Positions 3,708 to 20,330 of a stretch of 64,000 nt of DNA are shown in pieces. The stretch covers positions 1,696,001 through 1,760,000 of the forward strand of contig CBDCXV010000010.1 in NCBI GenBank assembly GCA_965223905.1, written 5' to 3'. A program made the position numbers and the translations under genes. Each line of letters opens with the position of its first letter. The stretch's first letter is position 1. A model generated the notes under the pieces. It saw only the letters and a list, made by a program, of their open reading frames with translations, was not told where the DNA came from and did not search any database. The stretch is from Candidatus Latescibacterota bacterium (GTDB taxonomy: Bacteria > Latescibacterota > UBA2968 > UBA8231).

Positions 3708-4607
3708 TCAGGTCAGCGCCGGGGGGCGAAAGACCTCTTTCTCATGCCACTTCACGAACCTGGGGTCCGGGCCAAGGCAGGTGTTCCGGGGCGCTCGAAG
3801 CGGACTGTCGTGGTAGTCGAGGAACCAGCGGACCGGGGCGCTGAGGCCGTGGACCTCACTTGAAACAAGCACCCTGTAGCCCCCCTCTACCGGTTCCAGA
3901 CCGAGCGCGCCACGGTCGAAGGCCTTGTGGTGCAGCCCGCACAACGCCAGTCCGTTCGCGACCTCGTCGGGACCTCCGGCGGCGTGCCACTTGATGTGCG
4001 CCGCTTCCAGACCGATCAACTCATTCCCAAGTCGCACATCGAAGTCACAGACGGCGCAGCGGCGCTGGTACTCCCGCAGAACCTCGTCGCGGAAGGCCGG
4101 GTTGCGCCGCGGGGGTAGTGGCGCGTCCCGCACCGCCCAGGTTCGCGGGATTCCGACTGCATCGCGGATCTCGTCATGCAGCGATTCCGGGAAGTGCCCG
4201 TCCAGTAGTCTTTGCGACGCCTCTCTCGCCAGCTCCGGCCGGTTGCTGAGCAGGTCGTACAGCGGGGCTGGAAAACCGCCCTGCACTCCCCGCTCGCGAA
4301 GATCACGTACGCGAAGATCTCCGCTCGCGGTTCGGGACAAGGTTTCGCTCCCGGGGGTCTCCCAAAGTTCGTCGGCGGGAAGCCTGCCGAACGGGAACTC
4401 CGGACGCGGCTTGCGGGGTGGACCGAAATTTTTCAGGAGGTCCGTGAGCCGGGTCTCGATCTGCTGGTAGGAGGCAAGGCGTTCCTCCATGCGGAGGACG
4501 CGTCCGAGCGCCAACAACAGCAGCAGGGGCTTGTGCGGCGCGCGTTCACCGCGTCGCTGCCAGACGTTGATGCGCTCGATCTTCTCGAGGAACTCGTCCC
4601 GGTCCAT
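3708..4607 (-). CDS. Sulfur-binding-domain (SBD)-HNH endonuclease, putative phosphorothioate-DNA-dependent nuclease
   Basis: N-terminal 'RAPHKPLLLL' and 'PEFPFGRL' as in ScoMcrA/SprMcrA-type SBD; C-terminal CAVC...EAAHIKWH...NGLALCGLHHKAFD HNH. Confidence 0.82.
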   Translation of the reverse strand: MDRDEFLEKIERINVWQRRGERAPHKPLLLLLALGRVLRMEERLASYQQIETRLTDLLKNFGPPRKPRPEFPFGRLPADELWETPGSETLSRTASGDLRVRDLRERGVQGGFPAPLYDLLSNRPELAREASQRLLDGHFPESLHDEIRDAVGIPRTWAVRDAPLPPRRNPAFRDEVLREYQRRCAVCDFDVRLGNELIGLEAAHIKWHAAGGPDEVANGLALCGLHHKAFDRGALGLEPVEGGYRVLVSSEVHGLSAPVRWFLDYHDSPLRAPRNTCLGPDPRFVKWHEKEVFRPPALT

Positions 4608-4646
4608 AGATCAGAAAGAGGCCGAGATCCGGGCGAACCGTCAAGG

Positions 4647-5462
4647 TTACAAATGACACACGGCACAGCCTTCCGCTAAATCCGGGGCTGGGATCTCCTC
4701 CCGCTCCGGAAGCTCGGCAATTCTCAGTAGCGGCCGTCCGTCGACCCAGGTATAGCCCCGGTCTCCGGCGCTATCCTGCTCATACCCCATTGCTTTTTCG
4801 AAAAGATCGGGGTGCACCTCCTTGAGGTTCTGCCATTCCCCGACCTGCTGGTAAAAACAGAAGTAACAGCCGGAACGGGACCGCCAGCGGTAGTAGCCGG
4901 GCAACCCGATGCCTGATTCGGTCAGAATTCGCTTGATGTCCTCAAGGATCATCCCCGCGTCCTTGAAAGGGTACACGGGCAGGATGTTCGGCCGCTGGGA
5001 GATCACCGGTGGCTTCTTCGATTGGTACCCCTCCCTGTCCTCGTCACCGCGAATGCCGATGTAGCTGAACGCGTGGCTGTCGCCGACGAACCGCTCGAAC
5101 GGCTGAATCTTCAGCACTCGCGTGCACCATCTCGAACGCGGATTCGGCAGGAATCCGCCGTAGAGCTCGTTCAGGTAGACGTCGAAGGGATTGCGCCCGG
5201 GCTTCCTCGCGACTTTGAGGTCGTCGAGAGCATTGAGCCGCTGCACCTCCACGCCCAGGAGTGCTTCCAGCCGTTCGAGGTACTCGTAGGTTTCGGGCAA
5301 TTCGCAGCCGGTATCGCAGAACACGTACTCCGCGGGGATCTCAGGGAAATTCTGGCGCATGTACAGGGCGAGCGCGGTAGAGTCCTTGCCGCCGGAGATA
5401 CTGACGATGTGGCGAATGTTCTTGTCGGACAGGCTTTCAAGCGCCTCCTGCATACTAGCCAT
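4647..5462 (-). CDS. sspD: PAPS-reductase-family phosphorothioation protein (SspD/DndC-like)
   Basis: PP-loop 'SISGGKDS', 'FCDTGCE', 'RWCTRVLKI', 'RSGCYFCFYQ', terminal 'CAVCHL'; overlaps the ATPase stop. Confidence 0.82.
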   Translation of the reverse strand: MASMQEALESLSDKNIRHIVSISGGKDSTALALYMRQNFPEIPAEYVFCDTGCELPETYEYLERLEALLGVEVQRLNALDDLKVARKPGRNPFDVYLNELYGGFLPNPRSRWCTRVLKIQPFERFVGDSHAFSYIGIRGDEDREGYQSKKPPVISQRPNILPVYPFKDAGMILEDIKRILTESGIGLPGYYRWRSRSGCYFCFYQQVGEWQNLKEVHPDLFEKAMGYEQDSAGDRGYTWVDGRPLLRIAELPEREEIPAPDLAEGCAVCHL

Positions 5463-10802: not shown

Positions 10803-12311
10803 TCAGTCAAGCATGGTGGCCGCCAAACGGCCCATTCGCATGCAAACACGCCGGTATAGAAGGCTGAAGCGATCGCGCCAGCCCGCTCTCTTCTCCTTGA
10901 GGAATGGATACGTCGGCCGCCCGCGCTCGCCGAGGCCGAACCGCCTGTGGGTGAACTCGCAACTATCCACACAACGATCCGGATGTTCGAGCCACTGCGT
11001 CTCGGCTTCCACGAACCTGTGTTCGAAGGACCACTGGCCCGCAGTCGCTCCGCAGTCGTGCCACCAATCCTGGCCGACCAAATAGCGGACGAGGATGCGC
11101 ATCTCCTCGGCAGCTACAACATTGCAGAATGCGATCGTGTTCTGGCCGGGCTCTGGGCCGTCGTTCACTTCATCGTTGATGTACCGTCCTCTGCGTCTTA
11201 TGCCTAACCGCTCGTCTCTCGCGTCACTACTGGTGTACTGACCTCGGCAGCGCAGGCAGCGCATGTCCGGCCCCACCAAGTGGACGTTCCACTTTGCGGA
11301 GAGCAACCGCTCCCTCGATTCCACGAGAACGCCACCATCGATCAACGGAAGGCAGTTCGAATACGCGATGTGGTTAAGAACCTCGCGCGCCTCCGGATTG
11401 TCGACGCAGCATAGGATGATGTCCGCGTCGGCCGTGTGTCGATATGCCCGTTCGGTGCGTATCGACAGTGGCACAGCCCGAATGACCGGCCTCCCGGCCG
11501 TGGCCACCTTTCGAAGGTGTGCCGCCGCTACCTCCGCCTTTGGCAGCCCTAGGCAGTGCCGGTCGGCGTAGATCAAGCGATCCAGGTTCCTTTCCTCGAC
11601 CCAGTCTGAATCAACGACGGTGATTTCCTCGAATCCTGTGCGCGTTAGACACTCCAGCACGATGGAGCCGACACTTCCCGCTCCCACAACGCAGATGTGC
11701 GTACGAGCCAGCCGTGCCTGCGCTTCCACTCCCCAGCAATCCAACGTCCGCACCAAGCTTTGTCGGCGGACATAGGGAGGGTAGGCGTCCGGTGGGGAAT
11801 CGGCACTCGTGGATCGGGCTCCGACGCGCCGCACGTCCGTGCAGTGAACGGGCTGGACGCCGCGCCCCGATTCCCGCCAGAACCGTGCGCTCCAGCAACC
11901 GTCTGAGCCCATTGTCATCCCCAACAGAGGCAGTCGAGTCTCGCGGACGAACGGGGCGATCACGTTGCGCTCTGTATCGTGGTCCAAATCGCTCATCCCC
12001 TGCCAGCCGGATCCGGGATGGCTGTGCAGCACGGCTACCCCCGCCTCCGCCTTAAGCGCGCGGTCGAGCACTCGGTTCAGGTAGCCGCTATGCACTGTCA
12101 CATTCCCGTGCAGATCTCGATCCCCATCTTCAGGAAGGACGACTTCCCCGAGGATTCCCGTATAGCGGTTGAAACCGTCCCCCCGGCGCCACAGGGCCAA
12201 ACAAGCCTCCTCCTGGCAATGGCCATGTCGGAATCCACTCAGCAGGTGGTCTGCGAGTTCAGGGTGAAGTGCTTCCCGTATCACGACCCGATGGATGGGG
12301 ATTATATACAT
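10803..12311 (-). CDS. JAB/MPN peptidase - ThiF/E1 adenylation fusion (bacterial ubiquitination-like)
   Basis: JAB: 'EEACLALW', 'HSHP...MSDLD'; E1: 'VVGAGSVGS', 'D.VEERNLDRL', 'CCVDN..AR', 'CLRC', C-terminal 'CVDSC'. Confidence 0.85.
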   Translation of the reverse strand: MYIIPIHRVVIREALHPELADHLLSGFRHGHCQEEACLALWRRGDGFNRYTGILGEVVLPEDGDRDLHGNVTVHSGYLNRVLDRALKAEAGVAVLHSHPGSGWQGMSDLDHDTERNVIAPFVRETRLPLLGMTMGSDGCWSARFWRESGRGVQPVHCTDVRRVGARSTSADSPPDAYPPYVRRQSLVRTLDCWGVEAQARLARTHICVVGAGSVGSIVLECLTRTGFEEITVVDSDWVEERNLDRLIYADRHCLGLPKAEVAAAHLRKVATAGRPVIRAVPLSIRTERAYRHTADADIILCCVDNPEAREVLNHIAYSNCLPLIDGGVLVESRERLLSAKWNVHLVGPDMRCLRCRGQYTSSDARDERLGIRRRGRYINDEVNDGPEPGQNTIAFCNVVAAEEMRILVRYLVGQDWWHDCGATAGQWSFEHRFVEAETQWLEHPDRCVDSCEFTHRRFGLGERGRPTYPFLKEKRAGWRDRFSLLYRRVCMRMGRLAATMLD

Positions 12312-12341
12312 AATTCAGCAAGTCTAATTTTAGTAATCTCA

Positions 12342-12376
12342 TCCGCGAAATTAAAGAAAATCTGGTATAATATAAT
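12342..12376 (+). repeat. 35-bp subterminal direct repeat, copy 1 (copy 2 at 16250-16284)
   Basis: TCCGCG-N9-AAAATCTGGTATAA(T/C)ATAAT; 28/35 identical; contains extended -10 TGGTATAAT. Confidence 0.7.
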
Positions 12377-12480
12377 AGAGAAAATACCAGAGAGAAGGAC
12401 ATCCCAGGTCCTCAAGTGTTTAGCCTCGAACACACGGCAGCATGCCATATTGGCACCGTGGGTCTGGGTCGATACGCGCA

Positions 12481-13368
12481 TCATTTTCCGGATCTGCATA
12501 TCGTGGAGGCATGAAGGTCCAAGGTTACCGTTTTGATGACGTTTTCATATACCCTAATCCCATCAGCAAAAACGAGCTCCCGAGAATCGGGAGACCATGC
12601 TATACTATTGCTCCCCAGTTCCCACTTGTGTATAAGCTTCTTGTTGGAGCCATCCAGGTCCATTGTCCATACGCTTTTCTCGTATCCTGCGATCTTATCG
12701 TCCGGGAAATCGCTGTAGTCGTCCCGATTAAATTCTTCCCCACGAACAATAACTGCCATCCTTTTCCCGTTAGGAGCTACGTCAGAATATGTGCCTTTGC
12801 TTATGAAGTGCGACGTATCTCCATCGGTTATCCAGACCTCCGAGCTTCTTGTCCAGTATATGATGCGTCCACCGGGAGCCCATGTAATCCCGAAAATTTG
12901 CCTGCTGTCTAATACATCATTAGGGATACGTTTGACAACGCCACCTTCCAGAGTTATTACAATAATTTCCTGGGCTCCTCCTCCTAAGAATAGAAAAGCC
13001 AATAGATCATCTCCAACAGGAGACCATTCCACAGATCTTAATGGTCCGTCACTCCCGCTATTAAAGATTGGCCATTCTGGCCTTTCGGAACCATCTAAGC
13101 TCCTCCAAGTAACTCCCCAATCATCAAAGCCCATTTCACTTGCGTTAAAAGCATAGGCCATCCTTGTTCCATCCGGAGATAGATCTCCCCGATAGACCAG
13201 GTTATAGTTGCCCAATTTTGTAAAGTGAGAATTGTCTGGATCAACTACACCAAATCCGTATTTTTTGTTTCCCCTTTCCACTTTCCAGGAGAAATCGAAA
13301 TAAACCTGTCCCCAGACGGAAGACGCTACTATCAGAATAATAACTGACACTCCGGCAAGTCTTTGCAT
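12481..13368 (-). CDS. Secreted TolB-like (PD40) beta-propeller protein
   Basis: Signal peptide; repeated 'SPDG', 'WSP', 'WAPGG', 'VWTMDLDGSN' blades; low GC. Confidence 0.75.
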   Translation of the reverse strand: MQRLAGVSVIILIVASSVWGQVYFDFSWKVERGNKKYGFGVVDPDNSHFTKLGNYNLVYRGDLSPDGTRMAYAFNASEMGFDDWGVTWRSLDGSERPEWPIFNSGSDGPLRSVEWSPVGDDLLAFLFLGGGAQEIIVITLEGGVVKRIPNDVLDSRQIFGITWAPGGRIIYWTRSSEVWITDGDTSHFISKGTYSDVAPNGKRMAVIVRGEEFNRDDYSDFPDDKIAGYEKSVWTMDLDGSNKKLIHKWELGSNSIAWSPDSRELVFADGIRVYENVIKTVTLDLHASTICRSGK

Positions 13369-13369
13369 T

Positions 13370-14380
13370 TCACTTACTCTTCACCTCTCCCCAGGTTGCA
13401 GGAGAAACCCTCGTAGTTTTGTCTCCCGAAGGCGACCAAGCTATTGAGTTTATGTACTCGGGAAAATCAATTATATCTCGTACGATGCCATCCAGAGAAA
13501 CAGCCTTAATCTCTCTAATTGTAATAAAAGCAACCTCCCTGGAATCAGGAGACCAAGAAATGCGGAACTCTTGTAAGGGTACGTATCCTCTGAATTGATG
13601 TACCAGTTTTCTGTTGCTGCCATCCATATCCATTACCCATATTTCCAAATCAGTTGGACTACTTCCTGTATATCCTGGAGCAATTAAAAAAGCTACTTTC
13701 GTTTCATCCGGAGATACGTCTGGGCTTCTTCCTTCTCCCAATGACTGTGAAAAATCACCGTCTGTAATCCACATTTCGCCTGACTCACTGTATATGAATT
13801 GTCCATCTGGAGCCCAATCGCAATACTTGTAAGTTCCATACTTTGCTTCAGTGGAAATTTCTTGTAGTATGATCCCTCGTCTTATGTCGCTAAATGGATC
13901 TACTACAATTAATTCAGGAGGTTCAGAAGGTTGAATATCGGCAAATAAGAGTATCTTTGTCCCGTCAGGTGACCATCTTGGAGAATAAATACGTGGAGTA
14001 TCTGACGATCCCTGATAGAAAACATATTTCCATGATTGATACGGGTCGTCATTGTCATGAATGTTCCCCCATTTTGGGAGGTAGTCCCAACGGTTTGACA
14101 TTGTGAGGCCATATGATGTTCCATAGCTTTTAACTGAACTGTAGACATCTATGATGTAATTACCGTCAGGAGATAGATCAAATGCCTCACCGGTCCAATA
14201 TCCTATAAGGGTAGAGGGATCAGTTCCCTTAGAATCTGTGTAGTAACTTGCTCCCTCTTCTGCAATAAAAGCTATCTCGTCTGCTCCGGATGCCACTATC
14301 CCGAGGCAGGAAAGAACAACTATTATGGTAATCATATGGCCGCTCCTTAGTGATGTAAGCAGACGTATTTCCGCGTTCAC
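13370..14380 (-). CDS. Secreted TolB-like beta-propeller protein with C-terminal 'SPATWGEVK' motif
   Basis: Signal-like N-terminus; 'WSPDG', 'SPDVSPDETKVAF', 'IWVMDMDGSN' repeats; ends TTRVSPATWGEVKSK. Confidence 0.78.
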   Translation of the reverse strand: MNAEIRLLTSLRSGHMITIIVVLSCLGIVASGADEIAFIAEEGASYYTDSKGTDPSTLIGYWTGEAFDLSPDGNYIIDVYSSVKSYGTSYGLTMSNRWDYLPKWGNIHDNDDPYQSWKYVFYQGSSDTPRIYSPRWSPDGTKILLFADIQPSEPPELIVVDPFSDIRRGIILQEISTEAKYGTYKYCDWAPDGQFIYSESGEMWITDGDFSQSLGEGRSPDVSPDETKVAFLIAPGYTGSSPTDLEIWVMDMDGSNRKLVHQFRGYVPLQEFRISWSPDSREVAFITIREIKAVSLDGIVRDIIDFPEYINSIAWSPSGDKTTRVSPATWGEVKSK

Positions 14381-14535
14381 TTCAATGATGACTTTATCTG
14401 TCCCCAGGTTGCAGGACGAACACTCGTTGCCCCACTGCCTGGAATCCAGTCAACGTCCCATACAACATCAGTCTCAAACAGAAACACAGAGTCCGTTCCG
14501 TCCGCATCTACCATGTAAAGACCGCGCCCAGTGAT
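14377..14535 (-). pseudogene. 3' remnant of a third TolB-like paralogue
   Basis: Reads ...LYMVDADGTDSVFLFETDVVWDVDWIPGSGATSVRPATWGQIKSSLK*, with an in-frame stop upstream; its stop overlaps the GTG of the next paralogue. Confidence 0.7.
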
Positions 14536-14809
14536 TCAGGACGATCTGAATTAACCTCAAGCGCGACTTCCAGACTGAATTGTCAACCAGGGTCCAGAAC
14601 AATTCCACCCGTTCGTAGGGAAATCCCAAAGCCTTCGGCCTTATCGAGGATGGAATCGTCATTGAACCTCAGATGCCTGACCCCTCCTGGATCTTGTTAG
14701 CTGTCCGGGTGGAAAAGTCGGAATCGGAAGGACCTGGGGGTTAGAAATGTGCGTGAGAGGCGTGTGGTGTTTCGCCCGCGAGGAAATCAAGCCTGTCAGG
14801 GAATTACCG

Positions 14810-15076
14810 TTAAGAACGGAGAGCTCTGCCATATGCATCTCCAAACTCTTCCAGAGACTCGCGAAGTTTGCTAATGTCCCGAATCACAGCCTGATGCTTG
14901 TTCCGGAAAAGAGAAATCTCGTCCGCGTCTGAAAGTGTGCGAAGTGAAGGAAAATCCGATAGCCTGGGCCTATGAGTAGTCTCAAAGACCGTCTTTTCCC
15001 TTGATAGCCAGTTTATTTGATCTTGAAGTTTTTGGTCGAATATCTCAATCGTGCGTTCAATCTCTTCATGATTCAT
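14810..15076 (-). CDS. Hypothetical protein (88 aa, helical)
   Basis: ATG with GGAGGA upstream; low-GC passenger region. Confidence 0.5.
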   Translation of the reverse strand: MNHEEIERTIEIFDQKLQDQINWLSREKTVFETTHRPRLSDFPSLRTLSDADEISLFRNKHQAVIRDISKLRESLEEFGDAYGRALRS

Positions 15077-15135
15077 AGTAAGAACGAATCCTCCGGTTCA
15101 AGCGCCTTTTAAATTTAAATTCTCTTCTTCCCTGA

Positions 15136-15930
15136 TCAGTCCTGCAAGCCGTCGTTTAGGTCAGGAGAATAGTTATCAGAAATCACTCGGAAAATGTAAT
15201 CCGCCAAGATAAGCATATTTAAGCTATGCTTATACGTAGAGTAGGGCACTAAACCATGCACCACAGCATGGCGATTCGGAACAGAATCCCTGATATATCC
15301 TTCCCTATTACTGTCAGTTACTCCTTCATAAATATGCTCCACAAGGCGTCCAAAAAGGATCAGTCCATGCGCTTTTTTTGGCAGAAAATCCTCTAACGAT
15401 CCACGATTGGCAAACGATTCAAGGAGCTTCTTCGAGCCAATACGACCTGCCTTGTCCTCAAAAACACACTCCCTGAGTATTCGTTCCATTTCAGGAAACA
15501 ACAATCGACAGACACATCGATGAAGACCTTCTCTATGAGCGATCAAGGCTTCCCGGAAGGTCTCTTTGCTCTCTTCTGAGATAGGACAGGTTACTAATCG
15601 TAGCTCCATCTCTTGCTGAATACGGTTCCAGTTCTTCCTATAGAACTCGGACAAACGACGATCCAATAGAGAGGTATCTCCGGCACAAGCTTCTACAAGC
15701 TGGATGGAAACAGAATCGTAAGGCAGCCAACCTGTTGCATCTACTGAATCCATGAAATCTGAGTACCTTTGAAAATGGCTTAAATGCCTAACGAAGAGGC
15801 AGTCTTTTCCCCCGTCTCTTTCATTCAGCAATCCGGCCATGCCTTCATTTCCCTCCTTTCCACCTATATGGCCCCCGGGATGATCGAGATCGAGTTGTGA
15901 GGCCAAGATGTTCATCACTTCTCCTCCCAC
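15136..15930 (-). CDS. Putative HEPN-domain protein
   Basis: 'FREALIAH..G', 'LFPEMERILR' and C-terminal 'PNRHAVVHG' (R-X4-H); true start uncertain. Confidence 0.55.
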   Translation of the reverse strand: MGGEVMNILASQLDLDHPGGHIGGKEGNEGMAGLLNERDGGKDCLFVRHLSHFQRYSDFMDSVDATGWLPYDSVSIQLVEACAGDTSLLDRRLSEFYRKNWNRIQQEMELRLVTCPISEESKETFREALIAHREGLHRCVCRLLFPEMERILRECVFEDKAGRIGSKKLLESFANRGSLEDFLPKKAHGLILFGRLVEHIYEGVTDSNREGYIRDSVPNRHAVVHGLVPYSTYKHSLNMLILADYIFRVISDNYSPDLNDGLQD

Positions 15931-16249
15931 CGGCGCGCCAGGAAGGCGATCCCGGAACCGGCTTCCCTTCTCTGTCTACTATCCGCTACTGTTTACCGAA
16001 ACTTGTACCACGCTAAATCCATTCTAACCCATTCTTTCCTGCAGGCAACGGCAAGGTAAGGGCAGACGGCTGTTACCGCTACCGGCTCGATGAACTCTGC
16101 CACGGGTTCCCCCCTCCAATCCCGATCCTACCGGACCCGAATACCCTTTCAATACCCCGCCCAGGCAAGCTGTCTCAGGGTCGTTTTCTCTACCCCTTCG
16201 TCGGTGAAGGAGGTCCTAACCGAAAAAACGTTCCTGATTGCCGGTCAGG

Positions 16250-16284
16250 TCCGCGTTTTTCGAAAAAATCTGGTATAACATAAT
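16250..16284 (+). repeat. 35-bp subterminal direct repeat, copy 2
   Basis: TCCGCGTTTTTCGAAAAAATCTGGTATAACATAAT, matches 12342-12376. Confidence 0.7.
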
Positions 16285-16308
16285 GGAAAGGTATCTAACC
16301 CCGATGGA

Positions 16309-16735
16309 TCAACGCGCCCTCCAGATCCTACGGAGATGTCGGTCCAGGTAGGTTCTCAGGCTCTTTCCGTCCGGCGTCTCGATCTGGTCCCAGAAGTCCC
16401 CCCGACGGGGCACTGATCGCCATCCAACTGAGCCCGTCTTCCCCTTCATAGTGGTTGACGACTCCCCTCGGCTGCGACCCCTTGACCTGCTCTGCCAGGA
16501 CATCATCCGGCGGCGACAAGTACAGCCAGTGTGGCGCAACTTCGGGCCATTCTCCTTCGTCTGGGTGCAGGGCGAGCCCCAACGTCACGGTCTCTCCAGC
16601 GCGACTGCCGTCCTCGATCTGATAGTCGAAGCGGACACCTTCTGCACCGCCTTGGTCCTTTGGCGCCGAGAACGACTCGTGCCGGTAGCCCAGCCCGGCA
16701 AGCTCCGCCGCCATTCGCTCCGAGTTCTGGCTCAT
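16309..16735 (-). pseudogene. Prokaryotic E2/UBC-like protein, +1 frameshift in a G6 tract (real or sequencing error)
   Basis: MSQNSERMAAELAGLGY...FDYQIEDG..AGETV..G...WPEVAPHWLYLSPP...WMAISAPS, then G6 at 16398-16403, then DFWD...SLRTYLDRHLRRIW; 141 aa if repaired, no Cys. Confidence 0.65.
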
Positions 16736-16817
16736 GCGAAAGGCGCACCTTTCTCGGGTGCCGCCCGGAAGATTTTGTAGTTTGTCAACTGTAGGTTGTG
16801 CGAAAGGAGAGAATGGC

Positions 16818-17915
16818 ATGTTTGGAATACGACTTCGGCTCGCTCGTAAGCGAGCAGGCCTTTCCTTGCGGTCACTTGCAGAACAGATGGAGCCGAGAGT
16901 CACCGCGCAGGCCATCAGCAAGTACGAGGCGGGCATGATGATGCCCTCTTCGTCGGTTCTGGTTGGCCTCGGCAAGGCGCTTGACGTCTCGCTGGACTTC
17001 CTCATGAGCGCCCAAGTCGAGGCGGTCGACGGCCTTGAGTTCCGCAAGCATTCCAGCACTTCGCCGAGCGACCGCGCGAAGGCCGAAGCCGTCCTGATCG
17101 ACAACCTTGAGCGGTATCTGACCATCGAAGAGGTTCTCGAAGTACCCCCGCCGGGCGACTCGTTCGAGGACCGCCGCTACGACAGCGTCGCTACCGAAGA
17201 AGAGATCGACACTAGGGCCGATGAGGTCCGCAACGCGTGGGACCTTGGCAACGATCCAGTGCCCAGCCTATGCGCCCTCCTTGAGGAAAAGGGAATAAAG
17301 GTGGTCGAAGGAGACCTCCCTGAGCGCATCAGCGGCTTGGCGTGCCGCGTCATGCGAGACGGCAGGGTGGTCGCCGATGCAGTAGCGGTATCGAAGCGGA
17401 CGAACGTGGAGCGCAAACGCCTCACCCTGGCCCACGAACTCGCACACAGAATCATCCGTTCCACCGGAAACCCCGCCATCAAGCTGGAGGCCGCAATGAA
17501 CCGCTTCGCAGGCGCCTTCCTCGTCCCACGCAAACATCTCCTCAAGGAAGCCGGAGCAAGCCGTCACCGCGTCACCTACTACGAGATCATCCGCCTCAAG
17601 CACACCTACGGCGTCTCAGCGGCCGCAATGTTGGTCCGCCTCGGTCAAGTCGGCATCCTGCGTCCTTCCGCCGTCGAGCGCGCCTTCAGATCCTTTGCCC
17701 GCTCTTGGCGCAAGACGGAACCAGAACCGATCGGCTCCGATCAAGGATTCGGGGCATTCGAGAAGCCCCAGCGCTTTGAGCGACTTGTCTGGCGCGCCAT
17801 CGGCGAAGAGCTGATCTCGCCGGTGCGTGCGGCCGCTCTTCTCAACGAGTCCCTCGACGCGGTCGAGCAGCAGATCAGCGGTCCGCTATCCAGTGACGTG
17901 TGTCATTGTCAATGA
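16818..17915 (+). CDS. XRE HTH - ImmA/IrrE metallopeptidase fusion
   Basis: 'RLRLARKRAGLSLRSLA...ISKYEAG' HTH; 'RLTLAHELAH', 'E..MNRFAGAFLVP'; SD GAAAGGAG. Confidence 0.9.
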   Translation: MFGIRLRLARKRAGLSLRSLAEQMEPRVTAQAISKYEAGMMMPSSSVLVGLGKALDVSLDFLMSAQVEAVDGLEFRKHSSTSPSDRAKAEAVLIDNLERYLTIEEVLEVPPPGDSFEDRRYDSVATEEEIDTRADEVRNAWDLGNDPVPSLCALLEEKGIKVVEGDLPERISGLACRVMRDGRVVADAVAVSKRTNVERKRLTLAHELAHRIIRSTGNPAIKLEAAMNRFAGAFLVPRKHLLKEAGASRHRVTYYEIIRLKHTYGVSAAAMLVRLGQVGILRPSAVERAFRSFARSWRKTEPEPIGSDQGFGAFEKPQRFERLVWRAIGEELISPVRAAALLNESLDAVEQQISGPLSSDVCHCQ

Positions 17916-18070
17916 CGCTTCCTGCCTGATCGACCTCCGCAAGGGTGGATTGCTGGAGGCCCTCTGCAATCTGCCGTACCGACTCGTGGTTCCGCTGCCC
18001 GTACGCGCGTCGGAAGTCCTCGACTTCGCCGACCAGCAATGGCAACACCTCGAGGACCACGGCATGATCG
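17893..18070 (+). pseudogene. Truncated PIN-domain protein
   Basis: GTG start overlapping the ImmA gene; 'VIVNDASCLIDL..GGLL..L..LP...P..V..E' PIN N-terminus; similarity lost after about 59 aa. Confidence 0.7.
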
Positions 18071-18155
18071 ACTCGAGTCTTTGGCCGGACGGCTTTGACG
18101 GTTGCGGGCTACCCCCACTGCATGCGGGGACCCCGACACAGATGCGCGCCATCGG

Positions 18156-18284
18156 TCAGGGTGGGGGGGCCCAGACGAGCATGAGGTCGCCGACCCCGCC
18201 GGCGATCAGCTCGTCCTGGACGCGCTCGTCCTCGAGGAAGTCGAAGGGAGGGAAGACGAAGGGCAGTGGGCGCAGCAGCGGCAT
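18156..18284 (-). pseudogene. Short ORF, probable 5' remnant of a host gene truncated at the island edge
   Basis: GGAGA SD + ATG, strongly GC3-biased codons for about 38 codons, then an abrupt stop. Confidence 0.35.
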
Positions 18285-18541
18285 GGCGTTCTCCCGGGTT
18301 TTTTGTGGCTGGGCAGCAGCTTCGGGCGGTGCCGGTGACGACACCGAAATACCGCGCTGACTGCCCGGGGGCTTCTGGGGAGCAGCGTGGCGGTCGTGCG
18401 GAATCGCGAGGGCTTCGCGCCGGTGTCAAGCACTGGGGGCGATCCGTCACACCGAGGTTTGCGCGCATCCGGGCAGCCCCTATGTTGGACGAATCCCCTG
18501 CCGCAACTGCTTCATCCCCCATCACCCGACGGTTTCTTCGT

Positions 18542-19354
18542 ATGTCCGAGGTCACACTCGTCTGCATGGTCGCGGGCCTTTCGCGGCGTTTCGGCGGCCG
18601 CATCAAGGGGTTCGCAAAGGTCGGCCCCCAAAACGAAAGGCTCGTCGAGCTGATCCTCGACCAGGCGCTGAGCGCCGGAATCTCGAGGATCGTCTTCGTC
18701 GTCGGCGAGGCGACGCACACCCCTTTCGAGCAGCTGTTCGGTTCACGGCACAGGGGGGTTCCGGTCGACTACGCCATGCAGGAGTTCGACGGCGCGGCCC
18801 GGAAGAAGCCGTGGGGCACCGTCGATGCGGTCTGCGCCGCCCGGGACTTCATCGGCGGTCCGTTCGTGGTCTCCAACGGCGACGACATATGCGGCGGGCA
18901 GGCGTTCAGGCTCCTCGCCGATCACCTGGCGAGGTCGGGGAACGCCGTCACCGTGGGGTTCCCGCTGGCGAAGATGCTGCCTGAGGAAGGGACGGTGAAC
19001 CGGGGGGTCTTCGAGCTCAACGACGACGGGACCCTGAAGGCGGCCACCGAGCTGTTCGATCTCGACCGCGACAACATCGAGGCCCGGGGCCTGGGGGCGG
19101 ACACCCTCTGCAACGTCAACCTGTTCGGGTTCCACCCTCCGGCGCTCGCGCTGTTGGAGGAGGCGCTCGCCTCCTTCAAGGCGGAGCATGCCGGCGATCC
19201 CGCGGCGGAGTGCCTGCTGCCGACCGAGATCGACGGTCTCGTCGGTTCGGGAAAGCTGGTGATGGACGTGTACGTCTCCGAGGAAGACTGGATCGGCGTC
19301 ACCAATCCCGGCGACGAGGAGAAGGTGCGGGAGCTGCTCGCACGACGACCCTGA
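18542..19354 (+). CDS. Sugar-phosphate nucleotidyltransferase family protein
   Basis: 'VCMVAGLSRRFGG..K...VGP', 'KPWGTVDAV', 'VSNGDD', 'GTVNRG', 'WIGVTNP'. Confidence 0.88.
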   Translation: MSEVTLVCMVAGLSRRFGGRIKGFAKVGPQNERLVELILDQALSAGISRIVFVVGEATHTPFEQLFGSRHRGVPVDYAMQEFDGAARKKPWGTVDAVCAARDFIGGPFVVSNGDDICGGQAFRLLADHLARSGNAVTVGFPLAKMLPEEGTVNRGVFELNDDGTLKAATELFDLDRDNIEARGLGADTLCNVNLFGFHPPALALLEEALASFKAEHAGDPAAECLLPTEIDGLVGSGKLVMDVYVSEEDWIGVTNPGDEEKVRELLARRP

Positions 19355-19412
19355 GGCGATAACGGCCAGAATTTCCTGCCGCCGGACAGATCGTCATCCC
19401 TATGGGCTGTTT

Positions 19413-19665
19413 CTACAGATACAGAAAGATCTGGATGTGCGGCCTGAACAACTCTACCCCAGTGGGGGCGAGTGTCAGGTAATTACATCTGTCTATCTCC
19501 CTATAGTTATTGTGGTAGTAATTCCATGCATTTTCTAAATCTTGAATAGTCAGATTAGGATATGCCTCCAGTAGCTTCTTATCATCCACTACCAACTCTT
19601 TTGAACGTACTAATCCCCAAACTGGAATTCTTGTGTTCTTTTATACGATAATTGGGTGAATTCAT
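19413..19665 (-). pseudogene. DUF433 antitoxin remnant
   Basis: 'NTRIPVWGLV....DKKLLEAYPNLTIQDLENAWNYY' with a frameshift after MNSPNYRIK; low GC. Confidence 0.65.
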
Positions 19666-19929
19666 TCATTTCTGTCTCCTTCGAAGATCTGAGGGGGCTT
19701 CGTGAATCGAAATTATCGCATTATGAGAAACCCAATATACCGGATTGCCTTCTTCATCCCACATATCAGTCAGCCGAACAACCCTTTGTATGTTTGGCTT
19801 CATTCTCAAAGTTGTTCCATCCTCAAGGCGTATTTCGCTGAATCTCTCTCTGGATTCTATGATACCAACAACAACTCCCTCCACACTGTTGCCATCAGGT
19901 CCTGGAACATTAACGCGACGTTCTGTCAC
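19666..19929 (-). CDS. Small hypothetical protein (87 aa)
   Basis: AGGAGG SD before GTG-ACA-GAA; 'ERFSEIRLEDGTTLRMKP...DEEGNPVY'; low-GC islet. Confidence 0.6.
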   Translation of the reverse strand: MTERRVNVPGPDGNSVEGVVVGIIESRERFSEIRLEDGTTLRMKPNIQRVVRLTDMWDEEGNPVYWVSHNAIISIHEAPSDLRRRQK

Positions 19930-20330
19930 TTTTCTTATCCTCCTTCTTGCCCTGCTTTTTGCCGTTGTTAGTTCATGAACTGCATCTGTGTGACATCGGT
20001 TGCTCCAAAAAGCCCAGGGTCCATACATAACCGGGGGTGCGACATCCCCCACTAGCAGATTTGGGTAAGTAAGGTGGGGAATGGCAACAGCCGAAAACCG
20101 CATTGCTGCCTGAATCAGCACTGTCCCATGCAGCGATCTATTTGATTCCAACTGACGAGAAGTCAGTCTGCCAATCATTTAGTGTTTCTGGCTTCCGTTG
20201 CGAACACCAACCAATCTGACAGAAAAATACGCATTATTTCGCGGAAACCTACCTGCCTGCTTGTTCTTTCCCGGTTGCCCGCAATTCGAGAAGGCCCCTT
20301 GGTTTCCATACCTTGGCGGGCAACTCCAGC

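Follow-up and report, generated by a model that had tools for sequence, protein, structure and literature searches.

How did a 4-kb block of DNA with no recognizable transposase gene come to lie exactly between the two genes of a translationally coupled pair, and what became of the gene that it split from its start? The question is raised by a 64,000-nucleotide stretch of a metagenome-derived genome of Candidatus Latescibacterota (assembly GCA_965223905.1, contig CBDCXV010000010.1, positions 1,696,001 to 1,760,000; hereafter the window), in which a cassette separates an open reading frame (ORF) for a JAB-E1 fusion protein from the E2-like gene upstream of it (Table 1). We conclude, with a probability of roughly 0.85, that the cassette is a non-autonomous mobile insertion cassette (MIC) of the IS1595 family of insertion sequences (IS), recently inserted and still polymorphic. 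A previous interpretation made from the letters of the window (the sequence-only reading) had also described a non-autonomous mobile insertion cassette, and this description agrees with the IS1595-type ends, the 8-bp target duplication and the missing transposase reported below.

A low-GC cassette between two copies of an 8-bp target site

The cassette stands out first by its composition. The GC content is 46.1% within it, compared with 63.0% and 64.2% in the 3-kb flanks, it is the sole large low-GC block of the window, and all of its sizeable ORFs lie on the minus strand. Junction reading and a scan for flanking repeats place its first letters, GGGGATTATATAC, at 12297 and its last letters, GGTATCTAACCC, at 16301, directly between two copies of CGATGGAT. 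The sequence-only reading had drawn the same insertion with GATGGAT as the repeat and 12297-16302 as the inserted segment; the insertion stands, with the ambiguous C assigned here to the 8-bp duplication and not to the element. No transposase had been seen in the cassette by eye, and this held in dedicated searches: comparison of its 19 ORFs of at least 40 aa with Pfam gave no transposase or integrase match at E ≤ 0.01, and tblastn with two IS1595-family transposases as queries gave no match inside the cassette. Similarly, no Rfam family matched the cassette or its conserved left end (the A-end); Rfam matches elsewhere were a group II intron fragment in one sibling element and a tRNA in another part of the window.

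The cassette ends belong to a genus-restricted IS1595 family

Comparison of window positions 12200-16400 with the 7.9-Mb genome by blastn gave 10 non-self matches, 7 of which repeat the left 80-210 nt and lie on contigs C2, C6, and C11. These alignments start at the element terminus, and the sibling copies are 76-93% identical to the A-end, the long ones that adjoin transposase genes having 85-88% identity over 160-213 nt. In the siblings, the A-end lies downstream of the transposase gene, 450-600 bp past the stop of ORFs that match PF12762 (6.5e-31 and 1.8e-26) and also NF033547, the model for IS1595 family transposases, with 143.5 and 162.7 bits (cut-off, 75 bits). Three sibling ends adjoin ORFs matching PF12762 and/or NF033547, and three transposase ORFs are apparently intact (C2:484634-485530, C11:1207500-1208369, and C11:1961838-1962764). 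The assignment of the ends to the IS1595 family, which the sequence-only reading had based on the resemblance of the termini, is supported by this adjacency of sibling A-ends to NF033547/PF12762 transposase genes.

IS1595-family elements duplicate 8 bp of their target site. An 8-bp duplication is found not only at the cassette but also at two sibling elements with A-ends on both sides, one of 4574 bp and one of 25,871 bp, which are bordered by perfect copies of ATCGAGGC and AACGCCAC, respectively. At the terminus itself, the A-end GGGGATTAT fits what we take to be the ISNwi1-type consensus (ggnnatTAT) and the B-end GGGTTAGAT, at the right of the cassette, does not fully fit it; the classification made here is at the level of the family, and a placement in the ISNwi1 subgroup is tentative. 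The A-end was found in 3 of 26 genomes searched, namely all three of this genus, and in none of the 23 outside the genus; each of the two congeners, G001 and G002, has 12 matches, most of which begin at the first base of a query that itself began one base inside the element. Judged by sequence similarity, the B-end is likewise a family feature, despite its poor inverted repeat with the A-end: window 16232-16299 has homologues of 87-90% identity in G001 and G002, and the similarity is lost at the terminus. Further copies of both ends, a check proposed in the sequence-only reading, were thus found, those of the A-end in this genome and its congeners and those of the B-end in the congeners.

According to the mechanism that we propose, the cassette would have kept the two family-specific ends, with passenger genes in place of the transposase gene, and the transposase of a sibling element, acting in trans, would have inserted it with the 8-bp duplication of the family. 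Several observations weigh against this proposal. The termini GGGGATTATATAC and GGGTTAGATACC form a weak inverted repeat, about GGG..TTA.ATAC, and that the same transposase also recognizes the B-end would have to be deduced from the family-wide recurrence of this end. Both siblings with clean duplications have A-ends at their two sides, not A plus B. Further, where an intact transposase gene is present in this genome, the adjoining end has 78-86% identity with the cassette A-end, and a copy with 88% identity adjoins transposase fragments only. Apart from these points, neither the far terminus nor the duplication could be delimited for three sibling copies in G002 (L029, L030, and L031), an autonomous element with an A-end at one side and a B-end at the other was not delimited either, and the other GGGTTAGATACC-like sites on C2 and C11 have no paired end and no duplication.

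The same termini bear on a different origin, in which the block would be an island placed by a site-specific recombinase or by illegitimate recombination, with the 10-nt CCCGATGGAT as the core of an attachment site. The end repeats D16 (19 nt, 79%) and D5 (38 nt, 79%) are direct, not inverted, which together with the weak terminal inverted repeat is what such an island might display. However, neither the cassette nor its flanks contain an integrase or recombinase domain, the 8-mer that was duplicated is ordinary coding sequence and also occurs in an uninterrupted homologous locus (L018), and the left terminus is that of a multi-copy family, whose members have IS1595 transposases, different 8-bp duplications, and unrelated sites. 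We consider a recombinase island very improbable.

Two observations on the siblings are recorded here in their own right. In L031 (G002:C1:2741200-2746500), a transposase gene lies between direct repeats, at positions 261-469 and 1824-1896, of a ~75-nt A-end segment (cassette nt 112-186, 83% identity); such repeats could be places for swapping the transposase gene against other modules. A candidate for a second cassette, at G000:C10:555875 (3869 bp, with an 8-mer match, ATGAAGAA), was rejected: it has a normal GC content (63.2%) and no A-end interior, and the 8-mer match carries little weight because one within 30 kb is expected about 1 time in 3.

Natural populations carry both the occupied and the precisely empty allele

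Nine public sequencing runs from three studies contain at least half of the sampled words of the stretch, and the contigs of four of them (X1, X3, X4, and X9, again from three studies) were compared with window 11800-16800 under a confidence rule of 31 letters for contigs that bridge a junction. In all four runs, a joint leads from 12286 to 16300 and skips 4013 bases (4005 + 8), with 10 letters (CCCGATGGAT) that fit either side. In X9, the empty site lies within a 1054-nt contig that has at least 255 letters on its shorter side (426 and 500 letters on the two sides, with 0 and 1 mismatches). The occupied allele was recovered as well: record 10 of X3 crosses the left junction, with 127 letters on one side and 84 on the other, and record 19 of X4 spans 12267-16329. 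The empty-site allele for which the sequence-only reading had suggested a search is therefore present in four of four runs. The insertion is recent and not fixed, the occupied allele being found side by side with the precisely empty one in natural populations.

Some of these bridges fall below the 31-letter rule, which weighs against the allele assignment: the shorter side of the empty joint has 30 letters in X3 and 20 in X1 and X4, and the right occupied junction is bridged by 28 flank letters only in every run. Contig depth, which is one figure per contig and a hint only, agrees with a mixture of alleles, with values of 16.5 for the flank, 9.3 for the cassette, and 5.6 for the empty joint in X3 and of 22-25, 11.9, and 4.3, respectively, in X4.

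The same contigs address the possibility that the cassette was mis-joined into the locus during assembly. The genome consists of 11 contigs with 5.1% estimated contamination, and both alleles occur in the same samples, circumstances in which such an error could arise. But the occupied junctions are seen again in independent contigs of the three studies, including the two records named above, and a mis-join would not make a perfect 8-bp duplication; we find an assembly artefact hardly credible.

The empty alleles can in part be typed by their flanks. The base 16405G is present on the empty contigs of X9 and X3 and is not on the X1 and X4 contigs that cover 16405, and the empty allele of X3 has further single-nucleotide polymorphisms (SNPs) at 12200, 12226, and 12251 plus eight at 16405-16490, none of which is seen in the X1 and X4 contigs. 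The typed empties (X9 and X3; 2 of 4) fit never-inserted, co-occurring lineages better than excision, and the suggestion of an excisable switch in the sequence-only reading loses ground accordingly. A reservation is that the X1 and X4 contigs over 16405 start at the branch point and pool the alleles, so that the phase between SNP and cassette is lost there.

The insertion interrupts a conserved translational-coupling junction

The interrupted gene encodes a protein with a ThiF/E1 domain (residues 190-359, 1.2e-34, Pfam) and, in its N-terminal part, a motif (HSHPGSG...SDLD) that is by eye of the JAMM type. On the minus strand, the frame of the E2-like gene ends GCG CGT TGA, at 16311-16309, and overlaps the native TTG of JAB-E1. 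This TTG is now followed by ATC CAT CGG and an element stop, and would give only MIHRG*. At the other end of the cassette, the last 15 nt of the element on the minus strand, ATG TAT ATA ATC CCC, are in frame with ATC CAT CGG GTC GTG, and the statement of the sequence-only reading that the interrupted gene remains open is correct.

A protein search returned 349 JAB-E1 homologues at E ≤ 1e-20, the best of which is 92% identical and 498 aa long. A native start MYIIP, which would speak against an insertion, was sought among the first 60 entries in a list of 120 of them and is seen in none; the start is MIHRVVIREALH in 10 of the 13 nearest homologues, and close ones begin MIHRVV. Consistent with these starts, the junction is uninterrupted in the locus L018 (78% identity, from a Gemmatimonadota metagenome-assembled genome (MAG)), which shares both the TTGA overlap and the ATCCATCG target, and in L019 (71% identity, from a Gammaproteobacteria MAG), which shares the overlap. 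In the distant loci L009-L012 (~40% identity), the E2 stop and the JAB-E1 start overlap as ATGA in 4 of 4 cases; L013 was left out of this count for its weak E2 match. Because of the homologue starts and junctions, we place the insertion at a conserved junction of translational coupling, within codons 2-4 of JAB-E1, and the proposed coupling of a TTG start to the E2 stop is upheld by the overlap and by the intact homologous junctions. Within 40 related genomes, no close JAB-E1 orthologue was found: the best matches have 39-42% identity and, apart from one in G020 that is partial, lie outside the family. Matches in the two congeners are of the ThiF type only, at 27-29%. Overall, the GC step, the sibling left ends, the 4013-base joint, and the intact homologous junctions make this more than a chance resemblance to an insertion. 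For annotation, the lesson is that the ORF of 502 aa is chimeric, its first five codons being derived from the IS.

JAB-E1 is most likely disrupted rather than rewired

We propose that insertion into codons 2-4, within the TTGA overlap that couples JAB-E1 to the upstream E2-like gene, would have stranded the native Shine-Dalgarno sequence and TTG before a 5-codon stub and thereby disrupted or strongly lowered JAB-E1, and that the downstream ORF would have stayed open by chance, the ATG of this end subtype falling in frame one time in three for this orientation. The sequence-only reading had held instead that the cassette rewires rather than destroys its target. In its full form, this alternative has the coupled pair made separately controlled, JAB-E1 expressed from the element ATG, and the system toggled by excision.

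Part of the evidence is in keeping with such a functional rewiring and thus weighs against disruption. JAB-E1 remains a complete ORF, co-directional with the passenger genes, and between 12481 and 12311 no canonical terminator is predicted, which would allow read-through expression. Both alleles are present together in the four runs, and at the B-end the outward-pointing TGGTATAAC could transcribe the E2-like gene in antisense and the adjacent gene for a regulator with HTH and M78 peptidase domains (HTH-M78) in sense. The origin of the ATG, however, argues otherwise. The same ATG-bearing end (GGGGATTATATACAT) is found in G002, on a copy that adjoins a transposase gene and in which the ATG opens a 60-codon frame only, and also on a fragment on C6; the ATG is hence an earlier trait of the end subtype. 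Among eight A-ends examined, that of the window alone gives a long ATG-led outward ORF, as is expected because the window copy alone is inserted in a gene, in that orientation and frame.

The surroundings of the new ATG are also unfavorable to rewiring. No GGAG, GAGG, or AGGA occurs within the 20 nt before it, as opposed to the GGAGG at the native TTG; a sigma-70 scan found no outward promoter facing JAB-E1 (3 sites compared with 5.7 expected); and on the minus strand, 50-80 nt upstream of the ATG, an 8-bp stem is followed by a U-rich tract. The typed empties fit distinct lineages better than the products of toggling, although the X1 and X4 contigs do not link the SNP to the cassette. Finally, the window haplotype has a frameshift in the E2-like gene. 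We favor disruption because of the missing ribosome-binding motif, the ATG shared with G002, and this E2 frameshift; JAB-E1 is, as far as can be predicted, most likely disrupted or strongly down-regulated, and a functional rewiring or switch appears unlikely.

The E2 frameshift (+1) is due to an extra base in a run of six C at 16398-16403, by comparison with L018 and L019. Expressed as contig depth carrying the intact form, which is one base shorter, out of total depth, the intact gene accounts for 22.5 of 22.5 in X4, 5.51 of 5.51 in X9, 31.3 of 47.2 in X1, and 5.83 of 40.6 in X3. The empty-allele contig of X9 has no frameshift, and the window haplotype joins the cassette with it. What detracts from this argument for disruption is that the E2-like gene is intact in most of the X1 and X4 material that bears the cassette; the frameshift is not a constant companion of the cassette and could be a strain variant or an assembly error.

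A promoter-like motif at both ends

A 38-nt motif occurs in direct orientation at both ends of the cassette, at 12342-12379 and 16250-16287, with 79% identity between the copies. Its core, TGGTATAAY with A-rich flanks, is the best-conserved piece of the IS family, and the motif is further seen at G000:C11:1204193-1204220 and at many sites in G001 and G002. By its sequence, TGGTATAAY could serve on the plus strand as an extended -10 promoter that points inward at the A-end (TGGTATAAT) and outward at the B-end, in the latter case in the antisense direction of the E2-like gene and the sense direction of the HTH-M78 gene. A conserved structured RNA in the A-end was considered and dropped because the folding z-scores of the two strands (-0.25 and -0.44) are no better than those of shuffles and an 8-bp hairpin around the motif is missing from several family copies. 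As a separate observation, a module of 240-260 nt (window 15943-16206) recurs with ~71% identity in other elements of the family, at G000:C11:1203845-1204090 and at G002:C1:295632-295863 and 430304-430528, beside the motif and in a different order; this module may have a coding or a regulatory role.

A broader idea is that the genus-restricted family ends are portable expression modules and not bare transposase sites. It would build on TGGTATAAY at both ends together with the outward-facing ATG of the A-end subtype, and we rate it as improbable. If it were true, JAB-E1 would be restarted from the element ATG, antisense transcription would enter the E2-like gene, and the HTH-M78 regulator would be over-driven, and the occupied/empty polymorphism would mean that a Bub-like defense operon is heritably switched on or off or re-tuned.

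Passenger genes

The cassette carries a pair of PD40 genes, the remnant of a third, and a HEPN-like gene (Table 1). The two PD40 proteins have hydrophobic N-termini and are possibly secreted or periplasmic. Within the remnant, 14392-14427 repeats 13379-13414 at 83%. The 264-aa ORF has 29 homologues and no Pfam family. In the alignment, P218, R220, A222, and G226 are invariant and N219, H221, and H225 nearly so, and R220 and H225 form an R-x4-H arrangement that we take to be the HEPN-type motif. In the ESM Atlas, the protein adjoins the cluster "MAE-28990/MAE-18760-like HEPN domain-containing protein" (score 0.95); a search against PDB sequences gave chance-level matches only, and we treat the putative HEPN identity as a lead, not as proof. 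The exact protein is recorded on 4 contigs.

Table 1. Features of the cassette and its surroundings (window positions, except for the two sibling elements, which are placed on their contig)
Feature	Position	Strand	Remarks
JAB-E1 (BubCD-like) ORF	10803..12311	-	502 aa; native form would be 498 aa
Target-site duplication, left copy	12289..12296		CGATGGAT; on the minus strand, JAB-E1 codons 2-4 (ATC CAT CG)
Mobile insertion cassette	12297..16301	none	4005 bp, 46.1% GC, without transposase
A-end	12297..12509	+	terminus GGGGATTATATAC plus 165-213 nt conserved in sibling copies
Element-supplied ATG	12309..12311	-	element nt 13-15; opens 502-aa ORF MYIIP + IHRVV...
TGGTATAAT, extended -10-like	12363..12371	+	points into the element; core of 38-nt direct repeat
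PD40 (TolB-like beta-propeller repeat) protein	12481..13368	-	295 aa; passenger
PD40 protein, paralogue of the 295-aa one	13370..14380	-	336 aa; passenger
Third PD40 paralogue, remnant	14377..14514	-	45 codons; C-terminus resembles the 336-aa protein
HEPN-like protein	15136..15930	-	264-aa ORF; homologues cover about the last 75-80% only
B-end	16232..16301	+	conserved ~60-70-nt terminus; reverse complement starts GGGTTAGATACC
TGGTATAAC, second motif copy	16271..16279	+	points out of the element
Stranded native start	16295..16312	-	TTG 16312-16310; GGAGG 16322-16318, 5 nt upstream
Target-site duplication, right copy	16302..16309		CGATGGAT; from flank-repeat scan
E2-like (BubB-like, no cysteine) gene	16309..16735	-	stop TGA 16311-16309
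HTH + M78 peptidase regulator, divergent	16734..17915	+	PADLOC RmrA, capP, and capH models
PIN-like gene after the regulator	17893-18087		tblastn match
25.9-kb sibling element	G000:C11:1182940-1208810		intact transposase gene at one end, fragments at the other
4.6-kb sibling element	G000:C11:1961238-1965811		DUF772 transposase fragment + group II intron D1-D4 match (RF02003, 94.5 bits)

The interrupted operon resembles Bub systems

The E2-like protein had no Pfam or NCBIfam match, a Foldseek search of its model against PDB returned nothing at E ≤ 0.001, and a profile search of PDB sequences returned nothing meaningful. In a wide search with VIA-align, the model (built with six homologues; pLDDT 86.3) was matched best by chain D of 9eav, the Citrobacter BubCD-BubB-BubA complex (Z 8.6, rmsd 3.7, 119 residues aligned), and many E2 and UEV proteins come next (Z 5-7.5), so that an E2-like fold is supported by the predicted structure. 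No conserved cysteine is present among the six aligned homologues. The gene is ~141 aa long here and in L018 and L019 and starts ~80 bp from the divergent regulator; because of this length and distance, there is no room for a Ubl part.

Overall, the locus resembles a Type I Bub (6E.1) operon with an E2-like gene that has no Ubl part. The JAB-E1 fusion is like BubCD, and PADLOC BilD and E1-E2 models match it weakly. A preprint on Bub systems describes their oxyester chemistry and a CapH/CapP-like regulator in 31% of Bub operons (bioRxiv 10.1101/2024.11.21.623953). The cysteine-less E2-like protein agrees with such chemistry, and a CapH/CapP-like regulator is present at this locus. Unlike in Type I, the Ubl-E2 fusion (BubAB) is not found, and a PIN-like gene accompanies the regulator; in the distant homologue L010, the E2-like gene has a long in-frame upstream extension that is Ubl-like by eye. 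The block of PIN-like, HTH-M78, E2-like, and JAB-E1 genes (on the window 16734-18360 side) has the same arrangement in L018 and L019 (71-78%). Because MAGs of Gemmatimonadota and Gammaproteobacteria share this block and the congeners have ThiF matches of only 27-29%, these comparisons suggest horizontal transfer of a Bub-like system lacking an adjacent Ubl. The ORFs downstream of JAB-E1 in L018 and L019 have no Pfam match, no search having been aimed at DUF6527 (BubE).

Comparison with known mobile cassettes

The primary work on MICs is reportedly that of De Palmenaer in 2004, and Siguier, Gagnevin and Chandler are said to have described IS1595-family "transporter" ISs with passenger genes in 2009. 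The cassette combines the features that mark a MIC, namely IS ends, a target duplication, passenger genes, and the absence of a transposase, and its trans-mobilization by a cognate transposase is presumed by analogy; the three apparently intact transposase ORFs of the genome and the polymorphism of the insertion bear on it indirectly. A published account likewise describes MICs as IS ends around passenger genes without a transposase, a cognate transposase elsewhere being presumed, has IS1595-family "transporter" ISs with passenger genes already in print, and mentions IS-driven expression of flanking genes (PMC3129680).

The cassette is like MIC231, derived from IS231 of Bacillus cereus, in its IS ends, passengers, duplication, and lack of a transposase. 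It differs in that MIC231 is of the IS4 type, whereas here we find an IS1595-type DDE, asymmetric A- and B-ends, and a direct 38-nt motif, and in that the passengers here are PD40 and HEPN-like genes. With the IS1595 "transporter" ISs it shares the NF033547/PF12762 transposases of its siblings, the 8-bp duplication, and passengers inside the ends, but those elements keep their transposase and this cassette has none. The closest plasmid-borne IS1595 transposases are only 31-35% identical. As in IS insertions that supply expression signals, the element end gives the neighboring gene a start codon; unlike in these, the ATG is all that is given, neither a promoter nor a ribosome-binding site directed outward to JAB-E1 was found, and the outward promoter-like motif sits at the other end, away from JAB-E1.

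These comparisons open no new mechanism. The locus does offer a cleanly documented natural transposase-less IS1595-type cassette, from an uncultured lineage, with its ends, its duplication, transposase-bearing siblings, and an empty allele in the wild, and may serve as a test case for trans-mobilization in the IS1595 family. It also presents a Bub-like ubiquitination operon, presumably for defense, that has been hit by a still-segregating mobile element, which fits the rapid gain and loss of such systems.

Other low-GC patches

Two further patches were noted. At 19350-20180, the window has a second, small low-GC patch (39-44% GC) with a 170-aa minus-strand ORF that has no Pfam match. Beside the sibling IS on C2, a low-GC patch in L002 (G000:C2:483800-490800, positions 3990-5216) holds a SIR2_2 ORF (PF13289, 1.1e-13) and a DDE_5 fragment, and may be another defense or mobile-element patch.

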